DNA of 32,811 bases from a virus (Duplodnaviria > Heunggongvirae > Uroviricota > Caudoviricetes), in the IMG/VR virus record IMGVR_UViG_2563366806_000002; one strand, written 5' to 3'. The stretch's first letter is position 1, and the number at the start of each line of letters is the position of its first letter. Below, one piece after another: positions 1-10,373 of the stretch. The translations under genes and the position numbers were made by a program. A model generated the notes under the pieces. That model was not told the DNA's origin and ran no database searches. It worked only from the letters and a program-made list of their open reading frames with translations.

Positions 1-981
1 TCACACCGCCAGCCCGCCGCCAAGTGGGTTTAATGTCACCGCGTGTTGCAGGTAATCGGGGGCGAGGTGAGCATAAACCATCGTTTGCTGAATGCTCGCA
101 TGACCCAGAATCTGCTGTAACGCGATAATGTTACCCCCGTTCATCATGAACCAGCTCGCGAACGTGTGCCGGAGCACATGCGTAGCCTGCCCGCGTGGCA
201 AGTCTGGTTTAACCTGCCTGAGCCGTTCGCAGAAGTTTTCATAATCAACTTTGAACAATGGCCCGGTGTCACTGGTCTTGATCTCCTTCTCCAGCTCTGC
301 CGATATTGGAACCGTTCGCTTTTTCCCGTTTTTGGTTTTGAGGAACGTCACACGCCCATGGTTAACCTGCTCACCTCGCAGGGTGCTGCCTTCTCCCCAA
401 CGTGCGCCAGTGCTGAGGCATAACAGCGCCACGCGCCGATCATCGCCGGTCAGGGTATCCAGCAGCTTGCTGATCTCTGATTTGGCGAGATAGGTCATAG
501 CTGGCGGCGCTTCTTTCAGTGGTTCCAATCCCTTGCAAGGATTCTCCTTCCTGAACTCATCCAGCTTAATCAACGTGCTGAACATGCCGGAAAAACGGTA
601 TATATCCCGGTTGATCGTTGCGGCGCTGATCCCGTCATCCAGTCGTTGGCTACGGTGCCGGGCGATGGTGCGCTTATCAAGCCGGTTAACTGCTGGATCT
701 CCCAACGCCCTGATTGTCTTTTTCAGGTGCCGCTTTTCTATCTCACCATTTTCCTGAGTCTGCCCATATAGCAGCCACCAGGTATCTAACAACTCGCTCA
801 ACGTGCGGCGGTCTACGCTCGCGCCAAGCCATTCTTTTTTATCAGCGTTAGCTAATACATAACGCTCAAAAAGAACCGCCTCTTGTTTCTTTTCAAATCG
901 CCTGCGGATGCGTTTTCCATTACGCCCACGGGGCCATACGTCTACTTCATACTGACCACCCTCGAGCTTCTTAATCGACAT
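1..981 (-). CDS. int: P2-like tyrosine integrase (stop codon at 1..3)
   Basis: 326-aa ORF with tyrosine-recombinase C-terminal signature (HVLRHTFASW...GHASIQQTMVYAHL); sits at the prophage end, divergent from cox as in P2. Confidence 0.9.
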   Translation of the reverse strand: MSIKKLEGGQYEVDVWPRGRNGKRIRRRFEKKQEAVLFERYVLANADKKEWLGASVDRRTLSELLDTWWLLYGQTQENGEIEKRHLKKTIRALGDPAVNRLDKRTIARHRSQRLDDGISAATINRDIYRFSGMFSTLIKLDEFRKENPCKGLEPLKEAPPAMTYLAKSEISKLLDTLTGDDRRVALLCLSTGARWGEGSTLRGEQVNHGRVTFLKTKNGKKRTVPISAELEKEIKTSDTGPLFKVDYENFCERLRQVKPDLPRGQATHVLRHTFASWFMMNGGNIIALQQILGHASIQQTMVYAHLAPDYLQHAVTLNPLGGGLAV

Positions 982-1047
982 AGCGAAGCCCTCCGGTATT
1001 GCAGAGTGAAAGTGAATCTATCCAGTCAATGAAATCATGGTGCAGCG

Positions 1048-1356
1048 TTAGCCAGTTTTGCGGACGGAGCGGCGCGACGTTGCCGTAGTCTCTGACCCAT
1101 CAAGAGAGAGAGCCGGTTCAATTTGCCCGGCTTCTGGTGCGGTGTTACCGGTCATCAGCCAAAGCGTATATTTCGCAAAACGTGGGTTTTCGAGTATCAC
1201 CGCGAGGTAATCGCCGGGGATCTGCCTGCCTATAGATTCATAGTTTTTAAGGTTGTTAGCTGAGATACCTGTTATCTCAGACATTTCTCTTCGGGATAGC
1301 CCTTCCGCCTTACGCATGAGGTGAATTTTTTCACCGATACTTGTTTTTTGGATCAT
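1048..1356 (-). CDS. Immunity repressor, short HTH protein (P2 C-like)
   Basis: 102-aa ORF with HTH-like segment (LSRREMSEITGISANNLKNY); located between int and divergent cox; no peptidase domain. Confidence 0.75.
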   Translation of the reverse strand: MIQKTSIGEKIHLMRKAEGLSRREMSEITGISANNLKNYESIGRQIPGDYLAVILENPRFAKYTLWLMTGNTAPEAGQIEPALSLDGSETTATSRRSVRKTG

Positions 1357-1378
1357 ATGTGATCTAAACTCCGTGATA

Positions 1379-1398
1379 TTGGATTACATGTAATCCAA
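1379..1398. promoter_or_regulatory. Perfect 20-bp palindrome TTGGATTACATGTAATCCAA in the C/cox divergent control region; candidate operator
   Basis: Read directly from sequence; lies in the 120-bp gap between the divergent repressor and cox starts. Confidence 0.5.
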
Positions 1399-1476
1399 TT
1401 CGTGACGTAGTACACCCGCCAATATAAGCAGGTGTAAGCCGAAATAAGCGCCTAGCGCCAGTGGGGATTATGACAC

Positions 1477-1758
1477 ATGACAGAGAAAGAGTTAGAGGGG
1501 TTCATTGAAGTGCGTCATGCTGTTGACGCGGTTCCGTACCCGAAATTTGCTGAGCTGATCGGCAAGAAGCCCGCCACGGTTAAGAGCATGATTGAAGACG
1601 GTAAGTTGCCGATCATCCCATGGAAGAACCCGGAAAGCCTGGGCGCTCGTGCTGAAAACTGGATCTACATTCCTGAGTTCAACCGCGCGATGCGTGATGC
1701 GTATTACAACCGCCCGAAAGAGCAGCGTGATGCTTGGCTGCTGTGGATTGGTCTGTAA
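1477..1758 (+). CDS. cox: Cox-like excisionase / early transcriptional regulator
   Basis: 93-aa ORF; segments AVPYPKFAELIGKKPATVKSMIEDGKLPII and NRPKEQRDAWLLWIGL match recalled P2 Cox. Confidence 0.8.
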   Translation: MTEKELEGFIEVRHAVDAVPYPKFAELIGKKPATVKSMIEDGKLPIIPWKNPESLGARAENWIYIPEFNRAMRDAYYNRPKEQRDAWLLWIGL

Positions 1759-1770
1759 GGAGTCGATGAT

Positions 1771-1974
1771 ATGACGGGCCAGTTAATACAATTAAGCCGC
1801 CATAGTTATATTTATCGTGGCTTCACCATTCATAAATGCCCGCGCAATGCCATTACGATGAAAACGGCATATAGCGTTTTAAATAATGGAAATTATTTAG
1901 GGCGTGATTTTGCTTTAGCCGAAGCAATGAAAACCATTGATAAGTTAAAAAGCGGTGAAAGTTATGAAAGCTGA
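1771..1974 (+). CDS. Hypothetical protein, first gene of AT-rich insert
   Basis: 67-aa ORF in a markedly AT-rich stretch immediately after cox. Confidence 0.4.
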   Translation: MTGQLIQLSRHSYIYRGFTIHKCPRNAITMKTAYSVLNNGNYLGRDFALAEAMKTIDKLKSGESYES

Positions 1975-2137
1975 AATGATTATCGGCCTTTCTATTTTTG
2001 CTGTGCTGGTTTTGTATTTAATTCAATTCCTGATCAGGCTGCGGAGCGAAAAAGTAAAGCAGCAGAGAGCTAAAGCGCTTGCTGAATTTAAAACCCGCCG
2101 CGAAGAAGTAGAGCGCAAGGCCCGTAGACAACTGTAG
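1955..2137 (+). CDS. Small single-pass membrane protein with basic helical tail (start uncertain; ATG at 1964 or 1976 possible)
   Basis: Hydrophobic segment IIGLSIFAVLVLYLIQFLI then KR/E-rich tail; AT-rich. Confidence 0.35.
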   Translation: MKVMKAEMIIGLSIFAVLVLYLIQFLIRLRSEKVKQQRAKALAEFKTRREEVERKARRQL

Positions 2138-2149
2138 CAGGTACACGAT

Positions 2150-2377
2150 ATGAACGATAACGCCCCATCACTTGCCAGCCTGTTAAAGCACGGTTGCCAG
2201 GTCACGCACTACCGCAATACACGCGGCTGGATTGAATGCCCGGACGGGCGTTTCTTTAAACCGGAACCGAATAAGGTGCGCTTTATTAAAGGTATGAGTA
2301 AGCCTTTTGTTTATACGAAGAAGATAAACAAAGGCTTATTTAGTGCCTTAGCAAGTTTATTTAGAAAGCTGCTTTAG
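2150..2377 (+). CDS. Hypothetical protein
   Basis: 75-aa ORF, AT-rich, third gene of the insert. Confidence 0.4.
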   Translation: MNDNAPSLASLLKHGCQVTHYRNTRGWIECPDGRFFKPEPNKVRFIKGMSKPFVYTKKINKGLFSALASLFRKLL

Positions 2378-2463
2378 TAATTAAGTAACAGATAAAACTT
2401 TTTCTACCTGTCGTCACTTTATTAAGTGATGGCGCATTCACTCACCAAAAAAAGGGGTTAATT

Positions 2464-2895
2464 ATGTTTGGCATGTTCAAGAAAAAAACTGCTGCTGTAA
2501 AAGTTGAATTAAAGAAAGTTGAAAATCGCGATTTGATGGAGGCCATTGTTGGTGGCTGTCTGCTGGTTGCTGCTGCTGATGGTGAAATTGAGAAAGAGGA
2601 AACCGCAAAGCTCGATCAGCTGCTGCGCTCCAATCCCCGCCTGAGCCATTACGGCAACGAAATCACCGCACTGATCACCCGTTTCACTGAACAGCTTGAG
2701 GCAGGTTTTCGCGTTGGTCGCATGAACATCCTGCGTGAAATCGAAGATATCAAAAACGACCCGAAAGAAGCGGAGGAAGTCTTCGTCAACATGCTGACCA
2801 TTGCCGAATCTGACGGCGAGATCGAGCCGGAAGAACAAAAGGTACTGGAAGAGGTTGGGCGTCGTCTGGGCCTGCGCGTTGAGGATTACATCTGA
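2464..2895 (+). CDS. TerB-like (tellurite-resistance TerB family) protein
   Basis: 143 aa with two DGEIE(K/P)EE repeats typical of TerB-like helical proteins; RBS AAAGGGG upstream. Confidence 0.5.
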   Translation: MFGMFKKKTAAVKVELKKVENRDLMEAIVGGCLLVAAADGEIEKEETAKLDQLLRSNPRLSHYGNEITALITRFTEQLEAGFRVGRMNILREIEDIKNDPKEAEEVFVNMLTIAESDGEIEPEEQKVLEEVGRRLGLRVEDYI

Positions 2896-3077
2896 TGAGC
2901 CAGATGCTGAGCATGTTGCGGCCCGCGCTGGTTCTGCTGCTGGCTTTCATGGTGGTAGCGGTGGACTTCACCAGTTATCTGCTCTCAGCAGTAGGCGATC
3001 TGTTCTTCGTGGGGGCGCTCGTTGTTCTGGTATGGCCTGCAATTAAGCCAGCCAAAGAGCAGCAGGGCGACGAGTAA
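2895..3077 (+). CDS. Small hydrophobic membrane protein, translationally coupled to the TerB-like gene
   Basis: 60-aa ORF, two hydrophobic stretches; start overlaps the upstream stop (TGATG). Confidence 0.45.
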   Translation: MSQMLSMLRPALVLLLAFMVVAVDFTSYLLSAVGDLFFVGALVVLVWPAIKPAKEQQGDE

Positions 3078-3144
3078 GAGAGGCACCGGGAAACTGGTGC
3101 TTATCCGGGGCGTTACTTCCGAGTGGTGCGCCTGATAAGCGGCA

Positions 3145-3555
3145 GTGATGGGGGATAGGGTTATGAGTATCGGGCAAGAAAAACCAGTATCCGGGCGTCA
3201 GATGTTCCTTGAACAGCGCGCCCGTTTGCAGTCGAGCATTTCAGTTTCCCGCACCAATGACACGGCGAGCCGTTTTAATCGCCTGGGCGAGACTCAGAAA
3301 AAGGTGATCATCCTGCTGGCAAACGAAGCCGCGCAGCGGTTTAAGGATCTGCCGTCCCTGACTCATTCCCATCTCACTATGCCTTTCGAACAGTTCAGCT
3401 CTCAGGACAAAGTGAGCCTGATGTTGGGCATTAAGCGCCTTGCCGAGCTGGCTGCGGCGTTGCCGTGGGAGTTTCCCGATTATGCCGCGCCGCGCCTTGA
3501 AATTCAGGCGTTACGCGAATCACAACCACCCGCGCCGGATGGCGCAGTCAATTAG
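3145..3555 (+). CDS. Hypothetical early protein (start may be ATG at 3163)
   Basis: 136-aa ORF in the early operon; RBS GGGGGA precedes the internal ATG. Confidence 0.5.
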   Translation: MMGDRVMSIGQEKPVSGRQMFLEQRARLQSSISVSRTNDTASRFNRLGETQKKVIILLANEAAQRFKDLPSLTHSHLTMPFEQFSSQDKVSLMLGIKRLAELAAALPWEFPDYAAPRLEIQALRESQPPAPDGAVN

Positions 3556-3624
3556 CCACTGAATGATTAACCAGTAGTCAGGCGCATCACCGCGCCGGGC
3601 TTCCTGCACCCAGGAGAAAGCAAG

Positions 3625-4566
3625 ATGATTCGATCACTACTCAAATGGCCCGGTGGCAAAAGCCGCGTGATGCCTGAATTACTCCCGCATTTACCAAAGG
3701 CTGGTTGCCTCGTGGAGCCTTTTGTTGGCGGCGCTTCCGTGTTCCTCAATACCGATTATCGCCGCTATATCCTTGCGGATATCAACCCAGACCTGATCCG
3801 CCTTTATCGTGAGGTGAAGAGCAATCCTGAGCTGGTTATTGACCTTGCCCGCCCGCTCTTTGCGACCGGCAATTCCAAAGAGGAATACTTACAGAACCGC
3901 CGCATTTTCAACGGTACTAAAGGCTTGCTTGATGTGGCCCGCGCGGCTCTGTTTCTTTACCTCAACCGCCACGGCTACAACGGCGTGGTGCGTTACAACC
4001 AGAGCGGCGGTTATAACGTGCCGTTTGGTCAGCATAAAAGCGCGCCTTACTTCCCGGAGGCGGAGATCCGGCAGTTTGCTGAGAAGGCCAACGACACCAA
4101 AGCCATTTTCTTGTGCAGCTCGTTTCAAAATACCCTCAAAGTGATGGTTGGAACGGATGAAGCCATCTACTGCGATCCGCCATACCTGCCTGCCAGCGAA
4201 ACCGCCAATTTCACTCAATACCACACCGAGCCATTCACCGAGCAGCACCACCGCCAGTTAGCGGCGGAGCTGCTGGAAGTGAACCGCAAATATGGCGCGC
4301 CGGTTGTCATTTCCAACAGTGACACCGAAACCACCCGCGAGATTTACCACCGTTTCCGCCTGCATGAAATCGACGTGCAGCGCTCTGTTAGTACTGACGC
4401 CAGCAACCGCCAGAATGCTAAAGAGGTGATCGGCGTTCTCAAGGTATGCGAAGGGTGCGGGCGCGCGGGCGGAGGCAACTGCCCGGACTGCGGGCCGTGC
4501 TGTGGTGATGCCACTTACAACGCGATGGTTGCAGCGGGCGCTTTTGATGAGCAAGGGGGTTTCTGA
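3625..4566 (+). CDS. dam: Dam-family N6-adenine DNA methyltransferase with Cys-rich C-terminal tail
   Basis: Strong similarity to E. coli Dam (LKWPGGK, CLVEPFVGGASVFLNTD, LFLYLNRHGYNG, DPPY motif); extra tail CEGCGRAGGGNCPDCGPCCGD. Confidence 0.9.
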   Translation: MIRSLLKWPGGKSRVMPELLPHLPKAGCLVEPFVGGASVFLNTDYRRYILADINPDLIRLYREVKSNPELVIDLARPLFATGNSKEEYLQNRRIFNGTKGLLDVARAALFLYLNRHGYNGVVRYNQSGGYNVPFGQHKSAPYFPEAEIRQFAEKANDTKAIFLCSSFQNTLKVMVGTDEAIYCDPPYLPASETANFTQYHTEPFTEQHHRQLAAELLEVNRKYGAPVVISNSDTETTREIYHRFRLHEIDVQRSVSTDASNRQNAKEVIGVLKVCEGCGRAGGGNCPDCGPCCGDATYNAMVAAGAFDEQGGF

Positions 4567-4802
4567 TGGCGAGCTTAATTGAATTTTTAGAGGCGGTTGG
4601 TCTGGAAAATGTGACCGTTCAACCACTTCACCAGTGCATTACGGGCGTAGCGATGGAGAGAAAAGGCGGTGCCAAAGTCAGCTTTTTGACCAATGAAATA
4701 ACCCCATCTGATGCATTCGGAGAGATGAAAAGAACGGCGTTCATCGTCTGGATGGACGCTAAGAAGTTTGATGCCGCACTTGAAAAAACGAAGGGCAAAT
4801 GA
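4566..4802 (+). CDS. Hypothetical protein
   Basis: 78-aa ORF, stop/start overlap with dam (TGATG). Confidence 0.5.
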   Translation: MASLIEFLEAVGLENVTVQPLHQCITGVAMERKGGAKVSFLTNEITPSDAFGEMKRTAFIVWMDAKKFDAALEKTKGK

Positions 4803-5014
4803 GCATGAAACAGAATAAGAGCGCGGTTTTATCATCAATCCAAAATGTTGCTGTTTTCTTCAATTACGGCGGTGAAACAGTAGCGTTAAAAATGACAGCC
4901 GAACAAAAGAGAGTGATCGGCCTGTTTGCTATTTCAGCCGTTGAAGGTACTGCGGAACTGGTGCGGGTGCCTCATTTGTCATTACCAGCAGATCCAGAAA
5001 TGGAGGCTCTGTAA
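4799..5014 (+). CDS. Hypothetical protein
   Basis: 71-aa ORF, ATGA overlap with the upstream gene. Confidence 0.5.
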   Translation: MSMKQNKSAVLSSIQNVAVFFNYGGETVALKMTAEQKRVIGLFAISAVEGTAELVRVPHLSLPADPEMEAL

Positions 5015-5322
5015 TGTCAAAAATCTATATCGCTGGCCCAATGAGCGGTTTGCCTGGCTTTAATCGCCCGGCGTTTCACCGTGCAGCCGCGCACATTGTA
5101 CGGCGCGGAAATGTTGCTCTTAATCCGGCGATCCTGCCGGATGGCTTAGAGCAAGCGGAGTATGTGGATATCTGCCTTGCCATGCTTCGCTGCGCTGATG
5201 GCATCTTCATGCTGGACGGTTGGCAGCAGTCTGCTGGGGCAAAAGCAGAATACGCGCTTGCTGAAAAGTTGGGGCTGGATATTCAGCACCAGATGATTGA
5301 TCGGTACGTGGGCGCACGATGA
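5014..5322 (+). CDS. DUF4406-like (nucleoside 2-deoxyribosyltransferase-like) protein
   Basis: 102 aa, IYIAGPMSG motif; translationally coupled on both sides. Confidence 0.55.
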   Translation: MSKIYIAGPMSGLPGFNRPAFHRAAAHIVRRGNVALNPAILPDGLEQAEYVDICLAMLRCADGIFMLDGWQQSAGAKAEYALAEKLGLDIQHQMIDRYVGAR

Positions 5323-7928
5323 CCACCGCAGCAAGTGGGCGTGGCGCTCCAACGCCGCCCCATCCGTATCCGGGTAGCGCACCAGACGCCACCCGGTACG
5401 CTTACGAATGGCAGAAGCCGAAAGCTGCCATTTGTGTTGATAAGACTCCCGTTGTTGATCTAGTCGAGCTGGGTCAAGAACAGGAGTTTTTGGCGTGGGT
5501 GAAAGTTACCCTTGCGCCGCTACCTCGCTTTATTCGCCTGCGTCTGGCTTCCCGCATTGACAGTATTCACACCATGAAGGGCAGACACATCGCCCGTCTG
5601 GCGCTACGCGATATCATTCGCAGGGATCTGCCACCCATCAACATGGTTAATGAGCAATACGCTATTGCGATGACCGATGAGGCTGAATCTCAGGCTGATA
5701 CAGCATTCAAAGGGGTAAACCCGCTTTACCACACGTTTAACACTCTTCACGGATTGGTTGAGCGCTTTAACCGCCTGCCGGACTTCACGCCGGAAGATGT
5801 TGAGCTGCTGGCGCAGGATATTGCTATCTATATGCGGTCTGTGCTGAGCGAAGTTCACGAGACGGTAGAGACGCAGAGTGATCGCAAATATGCCGAATAC
5901 CTTTACACCGAAGCGGCTATCCTCGCGCGGCTTTTCTTCCTGACGCCTCCAAGCTGGGAAAAGTATTGCCGGGGCGCGCTGTTTATTGATGAAGCTACTA
6001 CCGGCATCAGAAAGATGCTGGATGATCGCTATTGGCACCGTAACCTGAAAAAGTACGCTGCGCGCTGGCGCGAGCACCTGCACATTGCCTTTGGTGACGT
6101 GAAGCGGGGCGCTGCACCGTATTGCAGTAAGCACCATGTTGATGAGTGGGATGCCAGGCGTAAACGTAGCCGCGCGATCATGGCCCGTCTTGAACTGGAA
6201 GACCAGGACACCAAAGAGCGCATTTCACTTATTGAGCAGATCGATAAGAGCATTTCTAACCCGGCATTGCGCCGCGTTGAACTCATGACCCGCATTGGTG
6301 GTTTTGAGAAAGTAGCCACCGAAAGCGGCTATGCAGGCCAGTTTTTTACTCTGACAGCACCATCCAAATACCACGCCTATACCGTATTCGGTCATCGTAA
6401 TGCCAAATGGAACGGTGCCAGCCCAAGAGCAACGCAGCGCTACCTTAACCGGGTATGGCAAAAGATTCGTGCTGAGCTTGCCCGCCGTGAAATTCCGGTC
6501 TTTGGCCTGCGGGTGGCTGAGTCACACCACGATGGTACGCCGCACTGGCACGGCCTGTTGTTTTCCCTGCCGGAACATTCCGCCGAGTTGCTGGAAGTTA
6601 TGGAAGACTACGCAACCCGTGAGGATGCGGAAGAATTACAAGGTAAACACGGCAACCAACCGCGCTTTGATATGAAGCCGATCGATCATGAAATCGGCAG
6701 CGCCACCGGCTACGTGGTGAAGTACATCAGTAAGAATATTGACGGCTACGCGCTCGACGGCGAAACGGATGACGAGAGCGGCAGGCCACTGAAAGAAACA
6801 TCAAAACACGCTACCGCCTGGGCATCGTGCTGGGGCATCCGTCAGTTTCAGTTTTTGGGCGGTGCGCCGGTATCTGTCTGGCGTGAGCTGCGCCGGTTCC
6901 GCAATCAGGAGCAGGCCGACAAGATAAACCCGCTGTTTGCTGAGCTGCACCGCGCAGCGGATGCTGGCGACTGGCAGCAATACACCAAATTGCAGGGTGG
7001 GGCGCTGGTTGCCCGCCGTGATCTACCGTTGCGCATCTGGTACCAGCAGAAAGAAGAGCCAAATGATTACGGCGAGTATCTGGATCTTATTAAAGGTCTG
7101 GTGATGCCCGCTGCTCACATCCCACCAATTGAAACCCGCCTGCATACCTACCGCATTGTGCGTAAGAAACCGGAGGTTTTAGACGACTCCGGGCAGGCCG
7201 TTGACTTTGATTTTGACCTTCGGGGCGCGTCCGCGCCCTCTAGGACTCGTGTCAATAACTGTACTGAGGTCAAAAAACATACAAATTCAGGGGGTGACAA
7301 TTCGCCACCAGTTGAGCCTGAACAGTATGAAATTGGTCAAATGACCCACGAGCAGAAAAAACGGCTCAATGAAAGCATCAGAAACTACAAACCGGAACGG
7401 CAAAAATCACCTGCTGATGAGTTTGAGGCGCTGGCTAATGCCATTACGGCATCAGATTGTGATGATATTGAGCAGGCCAGGGCGGAGAGCTATCTAAAAG
7501 TTGCTCAAGAATTGAGGCAGCAGGAAAGGGATATGCCTGCTGTTACCGCGCCAGCTCCTATATCAGCCGATCGCATTGCGGCACTGGATGATTTTGCCAG
7601 ATCAATAGGCATAGAGCTGAGCACAGGCCAGTTATCGTTATTGCTACGCGGTGAGTGTTTGCGAATTGATGGCTTTATTGTCTCCGCAACCAGTAGCGGA
7701 GAGCTGAGACGCAGAAAAGATAACAGCGCTGACCGGAAGACCGCCGATTTGTGGCAGCATATGAAGCTAAGTCATAATGTTGACAGCAGAGATATCAGGC
7801 ATGATCCCGTTGGCAGCTATGCGGAAATGTTGAAAAAAGCTGATCCGGCTGCGTGGGACAGGTTGTTTGGTACCAGGAATCAGGAGCAGCGCGTATGTTT
7901 GACGAAGAACAGCGAGAGCAGGAAGTAA
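5319..7928 (+). CDS. A: Replication initiation endonuclease (P2 gpA-like rolling-circle initiator) with long C-terminal extension
   Basis: 869 aa; HUH-type segment ESHHDGTPHWHGLLF and catalytic Tyr region YVVKYISKNIDGY. Confidence 0.9.
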   Translation: MTTAASGRGAPTPPHPYPGSAPDATRYAYEWQKPKAAICVDKTPVVDLVELGQEQEFLAWVKVTLAPLPRFIRLRLASRIDSIHTMKGRHIARLALRDIIRRDLPPINMVNEQYAIAMTDEAESQADTAFKGVNPLYHTFNTLHGLVERFNRLPDFTPEDVELLAQDIAIYMRSVLSEVHETVETQSDRKYAEYLYTEAAILARLFFLTPPSWEKYCRGALFIDEATTGIRKMLDDRYWHRNLKKYAARWREHLHIAFGDVKRGAAPYCSKHHVDEWDARRKRSRAIMARLELEDQDTKERISLIEQIDKSISNPALRRVELMTRIGGFEKVATESGYAGQFFTLTAPSKYHAYTVFGHRNAKWNGASPRATQRYLNRVWQKIRAELARREIPVFGLRVAESHHDGTPHWHGLLFSLPEHSAELLEVMEDYATREDAEELQGKHGNQPRFDMKPIDHEIGSATGYVVKYISKNIDGYALDGETDDESGRPLKETSKHATAWASCWGIRQFQFLGGAPVSVWRELRRFRNQEQADKINPLFAELHRAADAGDWQQYTKLQGGALVARRDLPLRIWYQQKEEPNDYGEYLDLIKGLVMPAAHIPPIETRLHTYRIVRKKPEVLDDSGQAVDFDFDLRGASAPSRTRVNNCTEVKKHTNSGGDNSPPVEPEQYEIGQMTHEQKKRLNESIRNYKPERQKSPADEFEALANAITASDCDDIEQARAESYLKVAQELRQQERDMPAVTAPAPISADRIAALDDFARSIGIELSTGQLSLLLRGECLRIDGFIVSATSSGELRRRKDNSADRKTADLWQHMKLSHNVDSRDIRHDPVGSYAEMLKKADPAAWDRLFGTRNQEQRVCLTKNSESRK
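7221..7240. other. GC hairpin (GGGCGCG-tc-CGCGCCC) followed by AT-rich DNA inside the 3' part of A; candidate replication origin
   Basis: Palindrome read from sequence; in P2 the ori lies within the 3' part of gene A (recalled). Confidence 0.35.
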
Positions 7929-8404
7929 TTGATTTCATCAGTAACAAAATTAAGCGATGCCGTAAGTGTGGTAACGAGCTGCACTACAAGGAAAAGTATT
8001 ATTTTAATGATCGCATTTGCTGCACCTGCAAGGGGTTAAAACCGTTTGACGCTCCCGAAGATATTGCTTTGTCTGAAAGCTGCGAGCCAGAACCAGCGCG
8101 GCTGGCAGATGAAGGCCATGATGCGCGAACCAGTACCGAGCGTGAGCTATTTAGCCGATATCCCGAATGGCAGTTGATGAATGAGAGGGCGGCAAAGAAA
8201 TGGCGTGAAGAGCATCCGCCTGAAGAAAGCAGTCTCCCATCTTCCCGATCAGCGGTAAATTCCGCAGGCCCATTATCTGTTGAGCGCATCAATGAGCTGA
8301 TGGCTAAATATGATGCCAGCGAAGCCGTGGATATCAGGCAGGAAGAGCTGATATCGCTGCTGTGGGAAGTGCTCTATCACCGCAAGATTAATCCAGTCTT
8401 CTGA
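7895..8404 (+). CDS. Acidic zinc-ribbon protein of unknown function (track ORF starts 7853; ATG 7895 with RBS AGGAGC more likely)
   Basis: CRKCGNELHYKEKYYFNDRICCTCKG Cys cluster followed by D/E-rich sequence; overlaps the 3' end of A. Confidence 0.5.
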   Translation: MFDEEQREQEVIDFISNKIKRCRKCGNELHYKEKYYFNDRICCTCKGLKPFDAPEDIALSESCEPEPARLADEGHDARTSTERELFSRYPEWQLMNERAAKKWREEHPPEESSLPSSRSAVNSAGPLSVERINELMAKYDASEAVDIRQEELISLLWEVLYHRKINPVF

Positions 8405-8610
8405 ATGGCAATCGTTATAACCTTCGCAACTTGTTGCGCAGGTTATGGCGATTCTGCGGGCGCGGGCGGCAAAGAGTCCGCAGCATCGCGAAGCGGTGCT
8501 TATGCTGTGTGCGTTTTTGGAAATGAGAGCTGAAACAATAATTTTAGTCATTACAGGCACTAATCTGACTAAGCCCATTTGGGTGACTAGTCAAATTTAA
8601 AGGAATAGAA

Positions 8611-8916
8611 ATGCCAAAAATGAAAGATGGGGATCTGCTTTATAAAGATTACGTTAACCACGCCCGATCAGCTGGTGACGACCCAACCAAGATTATTTCA
8701 GATGCCAAGCGCTTTAACAGGCATGAAAAGTATGAGGTGCTTGATTTTCTTAATGCACTGCATGGACAGAACGGGGCAGACCTCGCCATCAAAACACGGC
8801 AAATTTGTGAGTGGATGATTCGCACCTATCTGCCTGGCACGATTCAAAGCACAAAAGCTGTTGAATCATGGGTTGCTGCAAACTTCGAAGAGCTTTCTAA
8901 AAAGTATCCATATTGA
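8611..8916 (+). CDS. Hypothetical 101-aa protein, AT-rich stand-alone moron
   Basis: AT-rich ORF with RBS AAAGGAA, 200-bp upstream gap, and a strong terminator directly after. Confidence 0.55.
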   Translation: MPKMKDGDLLYKDYVNHARSAGDDPTKIISDAKRFNRHEKYEVLDFLNALHGQNGADLAIKTRQICEWMIRTYLPGTIQSTKAVESWVAANFEELSKKYPY

Positions 8917-8933
8917 TGATTTTCATCTCTAAA

Positions 8934-8957
8934 GGCCGTCATTGATGGCCTTTTTTT
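8934..8957 (+). terminator. Rho-independent terminator
   Basis: GGCCGTCA..TGATGGCC stem followed by T7 run. Confidence 0.75.
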
Positions 8958-8965
8958 ATTTTCTG

Positions 8966-9080
8966 TAGAAATTGCCGCACAATCCCGCATTAAATTGCAC
9001 AATTTTTTTGACGGTACTTTTGCCAGACAAGCCCAGACGCGGCGCGGCCTGCCGTGATCTGCAAGTTTGCACAAAAAGAC
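8966..9080. repeat. Three direct (A)TTGC(A)CAA(T) repeats upstream of cos; candidate terminase/IHF recognition elements
   Basis: aaATTGCcgCACAAT, aaATTGCACAATtt, gTTTGCACAAAaa read from sequence. Confidence 0.35.
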
Positions 9081-9096: not shown

Positions 9097-9115
9097 GGCG
9101 AGGCGGGGGAACCAT
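9097..9115. other. cos-like site GGCGAGGCGGGGGAACCAT
   Basis: Close match to the recalled 19-nt P2/186 cohesive end (GGCGAGGCGGGGAAAGCAC); in the expected position beside the portal gene. Confidence 0.55.
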
Positions 9116-9326: not shown

Positions 9327-10373
9327 TCAGGCGGCTGTTGGTGGGGATGCGAGGGCGTAAGGGTTAAAGCGGATCACCTCAAAGCCCAGCCAGTCATTCA
9401 GCTCCTTCAGGCTTTCTTGTATCGGCGTCAGCTCGTTGATGGAGAAGACGCGGGCGGCTTTCTCAACGTCACCAAACCCCCCGGCGTTGCCTGGCATCAC
9501 CCCCATCAGTTGAGGCGGAACGCGGTGCGCGGCAAGCATATCATCCCGCGTTGCGTCCTTGATGCCGGTAAACTCATCCTTTGCCGCTATCTGGCTGAAT
9601 GGCAGGATTTGCAAGCCGTCTTTCTTCCCGCCTGCTGCGTATACGAACAGGTTTTTAAAAGCGCCACCGCCGCGCGCATCTTTCAATGATTTTTTCAGGC
9701 TCTCAACGTCTTTGTTGTTGGCGATCGGGTCGGTCAGGTAGACGATTACCCCGGCATGACTGCCGTTGATGTAGTAGTTGCGGCGGAACATGGTCGCTTC
9801 ACTGTTGAGCATGGCGCTTTGTAACGAGGCCATGTATTCAGGTGCGCCGTAGATCTCCTGGTGGATGCTGGGGTTTTTTATCTGGCAGATGCTGCCCGGC
9901 TTGAATGGGTAGTCCGCATCACGGCGGGTGATAAACCAGTATTGATCTTTTTTCAGGTCGCTGCCGCGTCGGGTATATTTGGCCTGGGCGTGTTTTAACG
10001 CAATAGGCTCGCCCAGCATGTTACGGCGCACCTCCATGTAGTTGTTGCCGAATACCAGATAATCCAGCACCCACGCGCTCATTTCCTGCCTGCTCAGCAG
10101 CGGGTGAGGGATGTAGCAGGATGTGATCACATTACGCTTAAAGACCAGCGGCGACTGATGATAGGCCGTTGAATCAAACATCCGGGCGATGCCGTAGGGG
10201 CTGATCGGTGGTTCAAAATATACGCCGTTATCAGCGCACTCCATGCAATCCAGCAACATGCTGCGATCGGTGATAGCTACCGGGTCGCCAAAGCTGAATG
10301 ACTCAATGCCTGCGGTTTGTTCGCTGGCACCCGGCTGCGGTCTGGCCTGAAACTTTTGCTTTTTGCGGCTCAC
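9327..10373 (-). CDS. Q: Portal protein (P2 gpQ-like)
   Basis: 348-aa ORF with P2 Q-type sequence; leftward with P as in P2. Confidence 0.9.
   Translation of the reverse strand: MSRKKQKFQARPQPGASEQTAGIESFSFGDPVAITDRSMLLDCMECADNGVYFEPPISPYGIARMFDSTAYHQSPLVFKRNVITSCYIPHPLLSRQEMSAWVLDYLVFGNNYMEVRRNMLGEPIALKHAQAKYTRRGSDLKKDQYWFITRRDADYPFKPGSICQIKNPSIHQEIYGAPEYMASLQSAMLNSEATMFRRNYYINGSHAGVIVYLTDPIANNKDVESLKKSLKDARGGGAFKNLFVYAAGGKKDGLQILPFSQIAAKDEFTGIKDATRDDMLAAHRVPPQLMGVMPGNAGGFGDVEKAARVFSINELTPIQESLKELNDWLGFEVIRFNPYALASPPTAA

Follow-up and report, generated by a model that had tools for sequence, protein, structure and literature searches.

The interval between the replication endonuclease gene (A) and the portal gene (Q) of P2-like phages was analysed in the virus record IMGVR_UViG_2563366806_000002, a stretch of 32,811 nucleotides (the window). 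Here the gpA gene (869 aa) lies at 5319..7928 on the plus strand, identified by Pfam (Phage_GPA, E=1.4e-100), PHROGs (phrog_91) and RefSeq ('replication endonuclease'), and the portal gene (gpQ; RefSeq 'phage portal protein') lies at 9327..10373 on the minus strand; gpA is the left anchor of the interval and the portal gene the right one, the latter having served as an anchor in all related loci. Two open reading frames (ORFs) are located between them on the plus strand, ORF1 (7895..8404, 169 aa) and ORF2 (8611..8916, 101 aa), near a cos-like cohesive-end sequence at 9097..9115, in which the 19-mer GGCGAGGCGGGGGAACCAT resembles the P2 cosR GGCGAGGCGGGGAAAGCAC. An earlier note, made from the sequence alone, had described both as cargo genes of a known variable accessory locus, at the site of orf91, tin and old in P2: an acidic zinc-ribbon protein overlapping the end of A, possibly a regulator or an anti-defence factor, and an AT-rich 101-aa gene with its own upstream gap and terminator, which was taken for an autonomous moron unit. 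The three P2 genes indeed occupy this interval, and both ORFs were found as described. However, our results indicate that the interval probably contains two unrelated things, a backbone gene (ORF1) and a moron (ORF2), with the roles proposed below, and not a pair of cargo genes.

At 100% identity, the window region matches a P2-like prophage that lies beside cpxP in E. coli ECONIH4. The RefSeq gene order of this prophage is integrase, repressor, Cox, Fil, TerB-family protein, Dam, DUF4406 protein and replication endonuclease (gpA), followed downstream of gpA by WP_001514719 and WP_001514720 (both 'hypothetical protein'), portal, terminase and late genes. ORF1 corresponds to WP_001514719 and ORF2 to WP_001514720, and the RefSeq coordinates agree with the ORFs of the window. 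The gpA-gpQ interval has been published as an anti-phage defence hotspot of P2 (Rousset et al. 2022, PMC9122126), in line with the accessory locus of the earlier note, and a 2026 preprint confirms the hotspot. In the supplement of PMC9122126, the hotspot arrangements include 'hypothetical + hypothetical, WP_001514719 + WP_001514720'; in the literature searched we found no main-text mention of either accession and no sign of a functional test of the pair. The pair is rare, being present in 8 of 5426 complete E. coli genomes, and in these eight neither ORF occurs without the other. The isolated-phage genomes of INPHARED gave no DNA or protein match to ORF1 or ORF2.

The position of ORF1 was followed through genome loci and 18 viral contigs, and the counts given here refer to the 26 loci in which upstream DNA was present. 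In all 26, ORF1 is located directly 3ʹ of the gpA gene, either overlapping it or lying about 10 nt past its stop codon, and this adjacency is kept even where the identity of gpA is just 29-34%. In the window, the ATG start codon of ORF1 has a GGAG-type ribosome-binding site 8 nt upstream, and ORF1 overlaps the end of the gpA gene by 34 nt. The cargo that follows ORF1 differs from locus to locus (an nSTAND3 protein, a 928-aa protein of unknown function, a pair of 227 and 557 aa, RelA_SpoT with a ParA-like ATPase, or ORF2), the portal gene lies between 0.9 and 4.9 kb away from ORF1, and the sequence similarity between loci ends at the ORF1 stop codon. Hotspot cargo is replaced between related phages; ORF1, in contrast, is kept in 26/26 loci while the cargo downstream of it changes.

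ORF1 is followed by a conserved double stem-loop at 8410..8481 (plus strand), where the early operon ends and the cargo slot has its left edge. The first hairpin has arms of 21 nt (8410-8453) and is followed by another one (approximately 8462-8481); the RNA folding energy is -49 kcal/mol (z=-4.05). The element was matched in 28 E. coli genomes, and 5 of its 25 pairs carry compensatory double changes in three sequences, with such changes seen in the first hairpin. Its position does not depend on ORF1: in 2011C-4251, which lacks ORF1, it immediately follows the stop codon of A, and in CAVP773, also without ORF1, it follows another ORF of 61 aa. We also noticed the stem-loop at 6019-6092 of locus L003 and at 3991-4066 of L047, whichever ORF precedes it. 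It may act as a terminator, stabilise the RNA, or form a boundary of recombination at which cargo is swapped.

Since ORF1 lies upstream of this conserved operon-end element, we place it within the early operon, with the cargo slot starting after the stem-loop. ORF1 would then be the last cistron of the early (replication) operon, translationally coupled to gpA and ending before the stem-loop; the timing of its expression we infer, as we do every function proposed in this work. Judged from gene order, ORF1 appears to be a backbone gene kept by a broad sub-lineage of Enterobacterales P2-like prophages, and not a cargo gene. Two observations weigh against this. ORF1 is truncated in some loci, to 54 aa in L031 and to 21 aa in L036, so it must be dispensable for at least some phages, and the gpA of L047 has a related long C-terminal tail without ORF1, which rules out strict co-variation of this tail with ORF1.

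The tail itself is a long C-terminal extension (residues ~650-869) of a gpA that has 869 aa in the window as compared to 761 aa in P2. The gpA of CAVP773 is 87% identical to that of the window over residues 1-796, yet only 44% identical over residues ~650-796, and similarity is lost after ~796-798; because similarity first falls and then vanishes there, a recombination break apparently lies inside the gpA tail. In the Klebsiella variicola loci L005-L007 the gpA gene is in fragments, with ORF1 and the cargo still present.

The locus resembles the gpA-gpQ hotspot of P2, occupied there by old and tin, in its position between the replication endonuclease and the portal gene near cos, and in its variable content, such as Phd/Doc in CAVP773 and nSTAND3 in L010. 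In sister prophages the slot holds Phd/Doc (L003 6201-6802), an Avs-like nSTAND3 protein (L010 5656-7926) or RelA_SpoT with a ParA-like ATPase (L005-L007 6674-8442). It differs from the hotspot in that only ORF2 behaves as cargo while ORF1 is constant, in that neither ORF matches a known defence family, and in the size of the cargo, which at 441 bp is far smaller than the systems usually found there.

Like P2 orf91, ORF1 lies directly past A with an overlap of start and stop, and the tum/orf97 SOS operon of phage 186 is also located in the A-to-cos interval. However, ORF1 has no sequence similarity to the products of these genes. A relationship of ORF1 to P2 Orf91, P2 gpB, 186 Tum or 186 Orf97 was ruled out by hhalign (probability <1%; 0.1-0.2% for Tum), and control by the SOS response was ruled out by the lack of a LexA box (CTGT-N8-ACAG, with up to one mismatch) in 7800-9000. 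We also rejected a -1 frameshift joining A to ORF1: the overlap contains no slippery heptamer that we could see, and the ORF1 of other loci begins past the stop codon of A. A protein related to P2 Orf91 (42% identity) has its gene in the early region, upstream of gpA, at L016 1298-1525 and L020 2014-2241, in a sister prophage with ORF1 and ORF2, which suggests that the post-A gene of P2 is located elsewhere in this lineage.

ORF1 belongs to phrog_21788 (E=1.2e-86), and for both ORFs the PHROGs matches were to families of unknown function only. A search of 5.8 billion proteins returned just 18 relatives of ORF1, with 40-98% identity, among which there was no Pfam domain and no informative name, the few names in the sources being 'hypothetical protein'. 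Scans with Pfam, NCBIfam and PADLOC gave nothing significant for ORF1, with a single sub-threshold match to Tas3-like_N, and neither DksA/TraR nor any other zinc-finger Pfam family was matched at E<=1. At the same threshold PADLOC had no match for either ORF. The profile and structure searches suggested in the earlier note were thus carried out and led to no family of known function for ORF1 or ORF2. Nor are the two genes conserved with a known function in all P2-like phages, which would have spoken against the note: ORF1 is found in a sub-lineage only, and neither ORF has a known function.

Four cysteines of ORF1 (C22, C25, C42 and C45, in the arrangement CxxC-x16-CxxC) are invariant across the 18 homologs, so that its N-terminus has the two family-wide CxxC knuckles of a zinc ribbon; metal binding is a prediction. 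The protein is acidic, with an isoelectric point (pI) of 5.1 and a net charge of -9, and the acidity resides mostly in a disordered linker (residues 51-78). The ratio of nonsynonymous to synonymous substitution rates (dN/dS) was 0.15 in comparison to a 75%-identical homolog, indicating purifying selection. The AlphaFold2 (AF2) model is modular, with a predicted local distance difference test (pLDDT) score of 69 and a predicted template modelling (pTM) score of 0.25. It comprises an N-terminal helix and the zinc ribbon, the acidic disordered linker, a long helix that bears the invariant Y89, W92 and W103, and a C-terminal helix-loop-helix; a conserved helix of the protein is amphipathic. Neither ORF1 nor ORF2 contains a hydrophobic stretch long enough to span a membrane. 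The modelled build suggests that ORF1 may be a zinc-dependent, possibly dimeric adaptor and not an enzyme.

In the PDB sequence search, residues ~129-165 of ORF1 aligned with single EF-hands of calmodulin, centrin and troponin C. The match was marginal, with a best whole-sequence E=0.0013 and per-domain E>1. The canonical EF-hand loop has 12 residues (D-x-[DNS]-x-[DNS]-G-x-[ILV]-x-x-x-E) and mostly occurs in pairs. D140, I147 and E151 of ORF1 fall at positions 1, 8 and 12 of this loop; however, conservation is missing at positions 3, 5 and 6, the Gly of position 6 is absent, and the motif is single. As read from these positions, the C-terminus of ORF1 does not qualify as a calcium-binding EF-hand, and calcium binding is not implied.

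Strict synteny and translational coupling point to an accessory role of ORF1 with gpA. Our tentative suggestion, which falls somewhat short of an even chance, is that ORF1 may serve as an accessory in replication or in a gpA-linked step of the lytic cycle, acting with or alongside the replication initiator. Alternatively, ORF1 could be an early anti-defence or host-takeover protein, as in the functional part of the earlier note's idea but with no cargo status. Its placement in the early operon would suit such a function, as would a small, acidic (pI 5.1), modular and non-enzymatic protein, and a gene restricted to a sub-lineage and sometimes lost is what is expected of accessory counter-defence genes. 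Against this, acidity is concentrated in the disordered linker and not on a folded surface that could mimic DNA, no PADLOC, Pfam or PDB match supports the idea, and a 2026 survey of 1511 P2-like phages reported Anti_RM and Anti_CRISPR as the only anti-defence genes, in 28 elements. That ORF1 stays strictly linked to gpA even between deeply diverged loci is more suggestive of two genes that function as partners. We thus consider the anti-defence explanation unlikely, albeit a contender.

A moron, in the concept of Hendrix and Juhala, is an autonomous gene that has a promoter and a terminator of its own and has been inserted among the backbone genes of a temperate phage. ORF2 has an AAGGA ribosome-binding site 6 nt upstream and is preceded by a gap of 206 nt. 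It is followed by an intrinsic terminator of its own at 8931..8963 (plus strand), with a 10-bp stem that includes 5 GC pairs (8931-8953), a 3-nt loop and a TTTTTATTTT tail; a hairpin with a T-run was also found 3ʹ of the ORF2 relatives in L017 and pEC886. The GC content is 43.8% in ORF2 and 35.5% in the 110 nt upstream of it, as compared to 53.5% in the window.

The limits of the unit were given by two Citrobacter freundii loci (L129/L130), whose nucleotide match to the window is restricted to 8515-8717 and 8714-8955, split by an insertion sequence (IS) element (DDE_Tnp_1) inside the ORF2 unit. In these loci the unit (~4905-6545) lies beside genes for a tailspike (Head_binding) and an O-antigen acyltransferase, and in L130 also an integrase; we read these surroundings as a P22-like prophage. 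Because the similarity spans exactly these two segments, 8515..8955 (plus strand) can be delimited as a mobile block of 441 bp, composed of an upstream region of ~96 nt, ORF2 and the terminator. In a further P2-like locus, L017, a relative with 69% protein identity is the sole gene between gpA and cos; ORF1 is absent, the portal is 95% identical, and the homology of the backbone picks up again at 8954. The hotspot of a third phage (L018) contains a frameshifted copy of ORF2 without ORF1, and ORF2 is absent or replaced in L003, L008, L010, L011 and L022-L036.

ORF2 is thus replaced between related phages, as expected of hotspot cargo, has a deviant base composition (GC 35-44%), and recurs as a block in another prophage context. 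It agrees with known morons in its own terminator, in its GC content, in being present or absent among close relatives, and in its recurrence in a different prophage; it differs from them in that its family is uncharacterised and common outside phages too, and in that its promoter is putative. On this basis ORF2 appears to be a true moron and the only cargo in the interval. The autonomous unit proposed in the earlier note was therefore borne out, while of its 'two cargo genes' only ORF2 remains: the comparison of the interval across P2-like prophages, which the note had recommended, gave a variable ORF2 and an ORF1 fixed to gpA upstream of the stem-loop, with independent distributions.

These distributions also bear on the possibility that ORF1 and ORF2 form one two-gene accessory (defence) system, as might be supposed from their constant co-occurrence in the eight carrier E. 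coli genomes and from their listing as a single arrangement in the supplement of PMC9122126. Outside one phage lineage, however, the two genes are independent. ORF1 was seen without ORF2 beside at least four other cargo sets, and L017, L018, plasmids and over 80 genomes contain relatives of ORF2 but not ORF1. The two genes moreover differ in GC content, and the conserved operon-end stem-loop lies between them. A two-gene system is thus highly improbable, and we treat ORF1 and ORF2 as unrelated.

The expression of ORF2 from its own unit is less clear. No sigma-70 site upstream of ORF2 passed the consensus scan, so that expression in the lysogen is only presumed, and no Ogr-type late-promoter motif (TGT-N12-ACA) was seen there in a by-eye reading of the sequence. 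Conservation of the 96 nt upstream of ORF2 extends to C. freundii and, in part, to L017; AATAAT at 8537-8542, conserved in C. freundii, is a possible -10 element. Rfam gave sub-threshold matches only, over the terminator. In addition to the missing promoter consensus, truncated, frameshifted or IS-disrupted alleles are frequent in the ORF2 family (P0024-P0026, P0043, P0059 and P0063 among them), which fits weak selection. Both observations count against ORF2 as a working moron, and together with its rarity (8/5426 complete E. coli genomes) they could be explained if ORF2 were a nearly neutral hitch-hiker with no role in the lysogen. However, D23, P25, R37, Y41, E42, E67, P75 and W87 are strongly conserved across phyla, and the ribosome-binding site, the upstream 96 nt and the terminator have been kept in three independent contexts. 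The dN of 0.26, with saturated synonymous sites, is far under dS and indicates purifying selection. We therefore regard a neutral hitch-hiker as quite improbable.

In a profile search of 1.84 billion representative proteins, the ORF2 family comprised 297 clusters (50% identity) at E<=1e-3, mostly of 90-105 aa. None of 76 diverse members (0/76) matched any Pfam model, no helix-turn-helix (HTH) or other DNA-binding family was found in these 76 members, and no source gave an informative name, the few names being 'hypothetical protein'. For ORF2 itself, the Pfam, NCBIfam and PADLOC scans and the PDB sequence search returned nothing. The protein is predicted to be soluble, and its model, obtained from a deeper alignment (pLDDT 85, pTM 0.75), shows an extended N-terminal segment packed against a three-helix bundle, with no resemblance to any solved structure or viral model. 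Near-invariant residues of the family are Y14, D23, P25, R37, Y41, E42, E67, P75 and W87. In rare fusions the domain is joined to a helix-hairpin-helix (DUF4332) or to lysine/alanine-rich repeats, which we judged to be histone-H1-like; these two kinds of fusion hint at a nucleic-acid-proximal role. In others it is joined to DUF6200 or duplicated within one protein.

The family was found in 80 genome loci from Beta-, Gamma- and Deltaproteobacteria, Campylobacterota, Bacteroidota, Patescibacteria and Clostridia, and its carriers include prophages, small ColE1-type plasmids, a megaplasmid and conjugative elements. Several relatives are located among anti-phage systems. A 33-kb metagenomic contig (L128, the same contig as that of L038) contains two diverged copies, at 6307-6612 and 10001-10303, in a defence island, where they separate a SIR2 and short-pAgo system with AbiH, a PD-T4-3-like nuclease, a ThsB-like TIR gene and type II CBASS. 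The ThsB-like TIR gene (PDLC00424, E=1.5e-117) starts 28 nt downstream of the second copy, in the same direction. On the Cupriavidus megaplasmid pHG1, a relative lies between Gabija (GajA/GajB) and Avs1a/b, upstream of avs1a, and on pEC156-type 4.3-kb plasmids a relative adjoins the EcoVIII restriction-modification (R-M) system. Adjacency to a ThsB-like TIR gene was seen in three taxa (L128 10001-11044, Cupriavidus pauculus L114 5001-6135 and Bacteroidetes L124 4956-7410), with TIR domains that are 60-80% identical; in L124, a Bacteroidetes element beside RteC, one ORF lies between the ORF2 relative and the TIR gene. This arrangement is reminiscent of Thoeris, in which ThsB is found, yet ThsA was matched neither by the next gene of L128 (176 aa) nor, in L114 and L124, by the genes that flank the TIR gene, and no PADLOC model was matched by ORF2.

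Such neighbourhoods raise the question of whether the family consists of regulators or partner subunits of an adjacent defence effector, with the prophage copy as an orphan. In favour of this, relatives are located upstream of the ThsB-like TIR gene and co-directional with it (L128, L114 and, with the intervening ORF, L124), as well as upstream of avs1a and ecoVIIIR, and the helix-hairpin-helix and lysine/alanine-rich fusions are compatible with DNA binding. However, no neighbouring gene family was common to more than 5 of 86 loci, and spacing and orientation were not fixed. A conserved operon partner was therefore ruled out, and ORF2 appears to have no obligate partner. The 76 members contain no HTH or other DNA-binding family, and the terminator of the unit, in the window as well as in L017, directly abuts backbone DNA, with no remnant of an effector. 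We consider a regulator or partner subunit improbable.

The plasmid case is instructive, as the controller (C) proteins of R-M systems offer an obvious parallel: the ~97-aa ORF2 relative of pEC156-type plasmids is directly upstream of the EcoVIII endonuclease gene and co-directional with it. In contrast to a C protein, it has no HTH, has a GC content of ~49% where the R-M genes have ~35%, and is set apart from them by a terminator-like hairpin (pEC886); no R-M system is present in the window. A role as the EcoVIII C protein was rejected on these grounds. In the parts of the 2019 EcoVIII paper available to us, C proteins are named as one mode of R-M control and none is ascribed to EcoVIII; the pEC156 paper does not mention the ORF2-family ORF. 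We also noticed that in pEC886 (L046 371-664) and pKOr019_4 (L044) an intact 97-aa gene of the family is located between an F-type oriT and ecoVIIIR, and that the RefSeq starts of both relatives are shorter and probably wrong. We rejected the idea that these genes belong to a plasmid leading region, since they are located to the traM side of the F-type nick site, presumably the side transferred last.

Another possibility is that ORF2 is a counter-defence protein of mobile elements, for example an inhibitor or sponge directed against TIR/Thoeris-type or NAD-/nucleotide-signalling immunity. Its carriage by prophages, small mobilizable plasmids and conjugative elements would be in agreement with this, as would its size and apparently non-enzymatic nature, shared with known sponge and inhibitor proteins, and the repeated adjacency to ThsB-like genes. 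For such a protein, however, sites amid host defence systems, or alone between ygiN-like and parE-like genes, are atypical, and the pEC156-type copy lies on the side of the nick site that we infer to be transferred last. The lack of similarity to solved structures and viral models gives no support either. We regard this explanation as quite improbable too, on a par with neutrality.

For the wider class, a role of ORF2 in phage-host or mobile genetic element (MGE) conflict, be it defence, regulation of a neighbouring effector or counter-defence, we put the chance at about one half, taken over all three forms. ORF2 would act alone, by binding a target and not by catalysis. If it belongs to this class, the presence of family members both amid defence islands and on prophages, plasmids and conjugative elements would be explained. 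Among 129 nearest neighbours of the family, ~11-13% matched defence families (AAA_15/21 ATPases, TIR, Drt4, CD-NTase and DpnII); since this is a rough count of hidden Markov model matches with no matched background, it is a lead only. Other neighbours are MGE genes such as UmuC, RteC and resolvase. The crudeness of the count counts against a conflict role, as does the fact that many neighbours are housekeeping genes and that the family is present in tiny-genome Patescibacteria, so a more general cellular role is also possible. The most specific version of our proposal, in which the ORF2 family represents a new class of phylum-spanning stand-alone conflict proteins (a minimal one-gene defence, a modulator of neighbouring effectors such as ThsB-type TIR proteins, or a counter-defence factor) and ORF1 is a hitherto overlooked zinc-ribbon partner of the gpA rolling-circle initiator in one P2-like branch, is less likely than not, and we offer it with reserve.

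Outside the interval, the early operon in window 1-5300 (L001 6478-10323) encodes Fil, a TerB-family protein, DUF3927, Dam, DUF4406 and several small hypothetical proteins; no homolog of P2 gpB was found among these genes. In five E. coli prophages (ECONIH5 type), the A-ORF1-ORF2 block is 99% identical to that of the window and the homology stops at ~9129, to the right of which the portal and terminase have only 76-78% protein identity. Because the homology breaks off there, a mosaic junction would lie at or beside cos.

Automated surveys of the gpA-to-gpQ interval that count all of its content as cargo would tally ORF1-type genes as accessory or defence candidates, while the true left boundary of the cargo slot is here the conserved stem-loop after ORF1. 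The pair itself had already been catalogued as a hotspot arrangement, and the reassignment of ORF1 from cargo to backbone is a correction. The immediate value of these results is that of an annotation correction and a lead on an unmodelled family, and not of a discovery. The lead is ORF2, which draws attention to a large family with no Pfam model and with a confidently predicted fold that has no structural relative, recurring between anti-phage systems and on mobile elements. Its 441-bp unit would be easy to clone for defence, regulatory or anti-defence screens.

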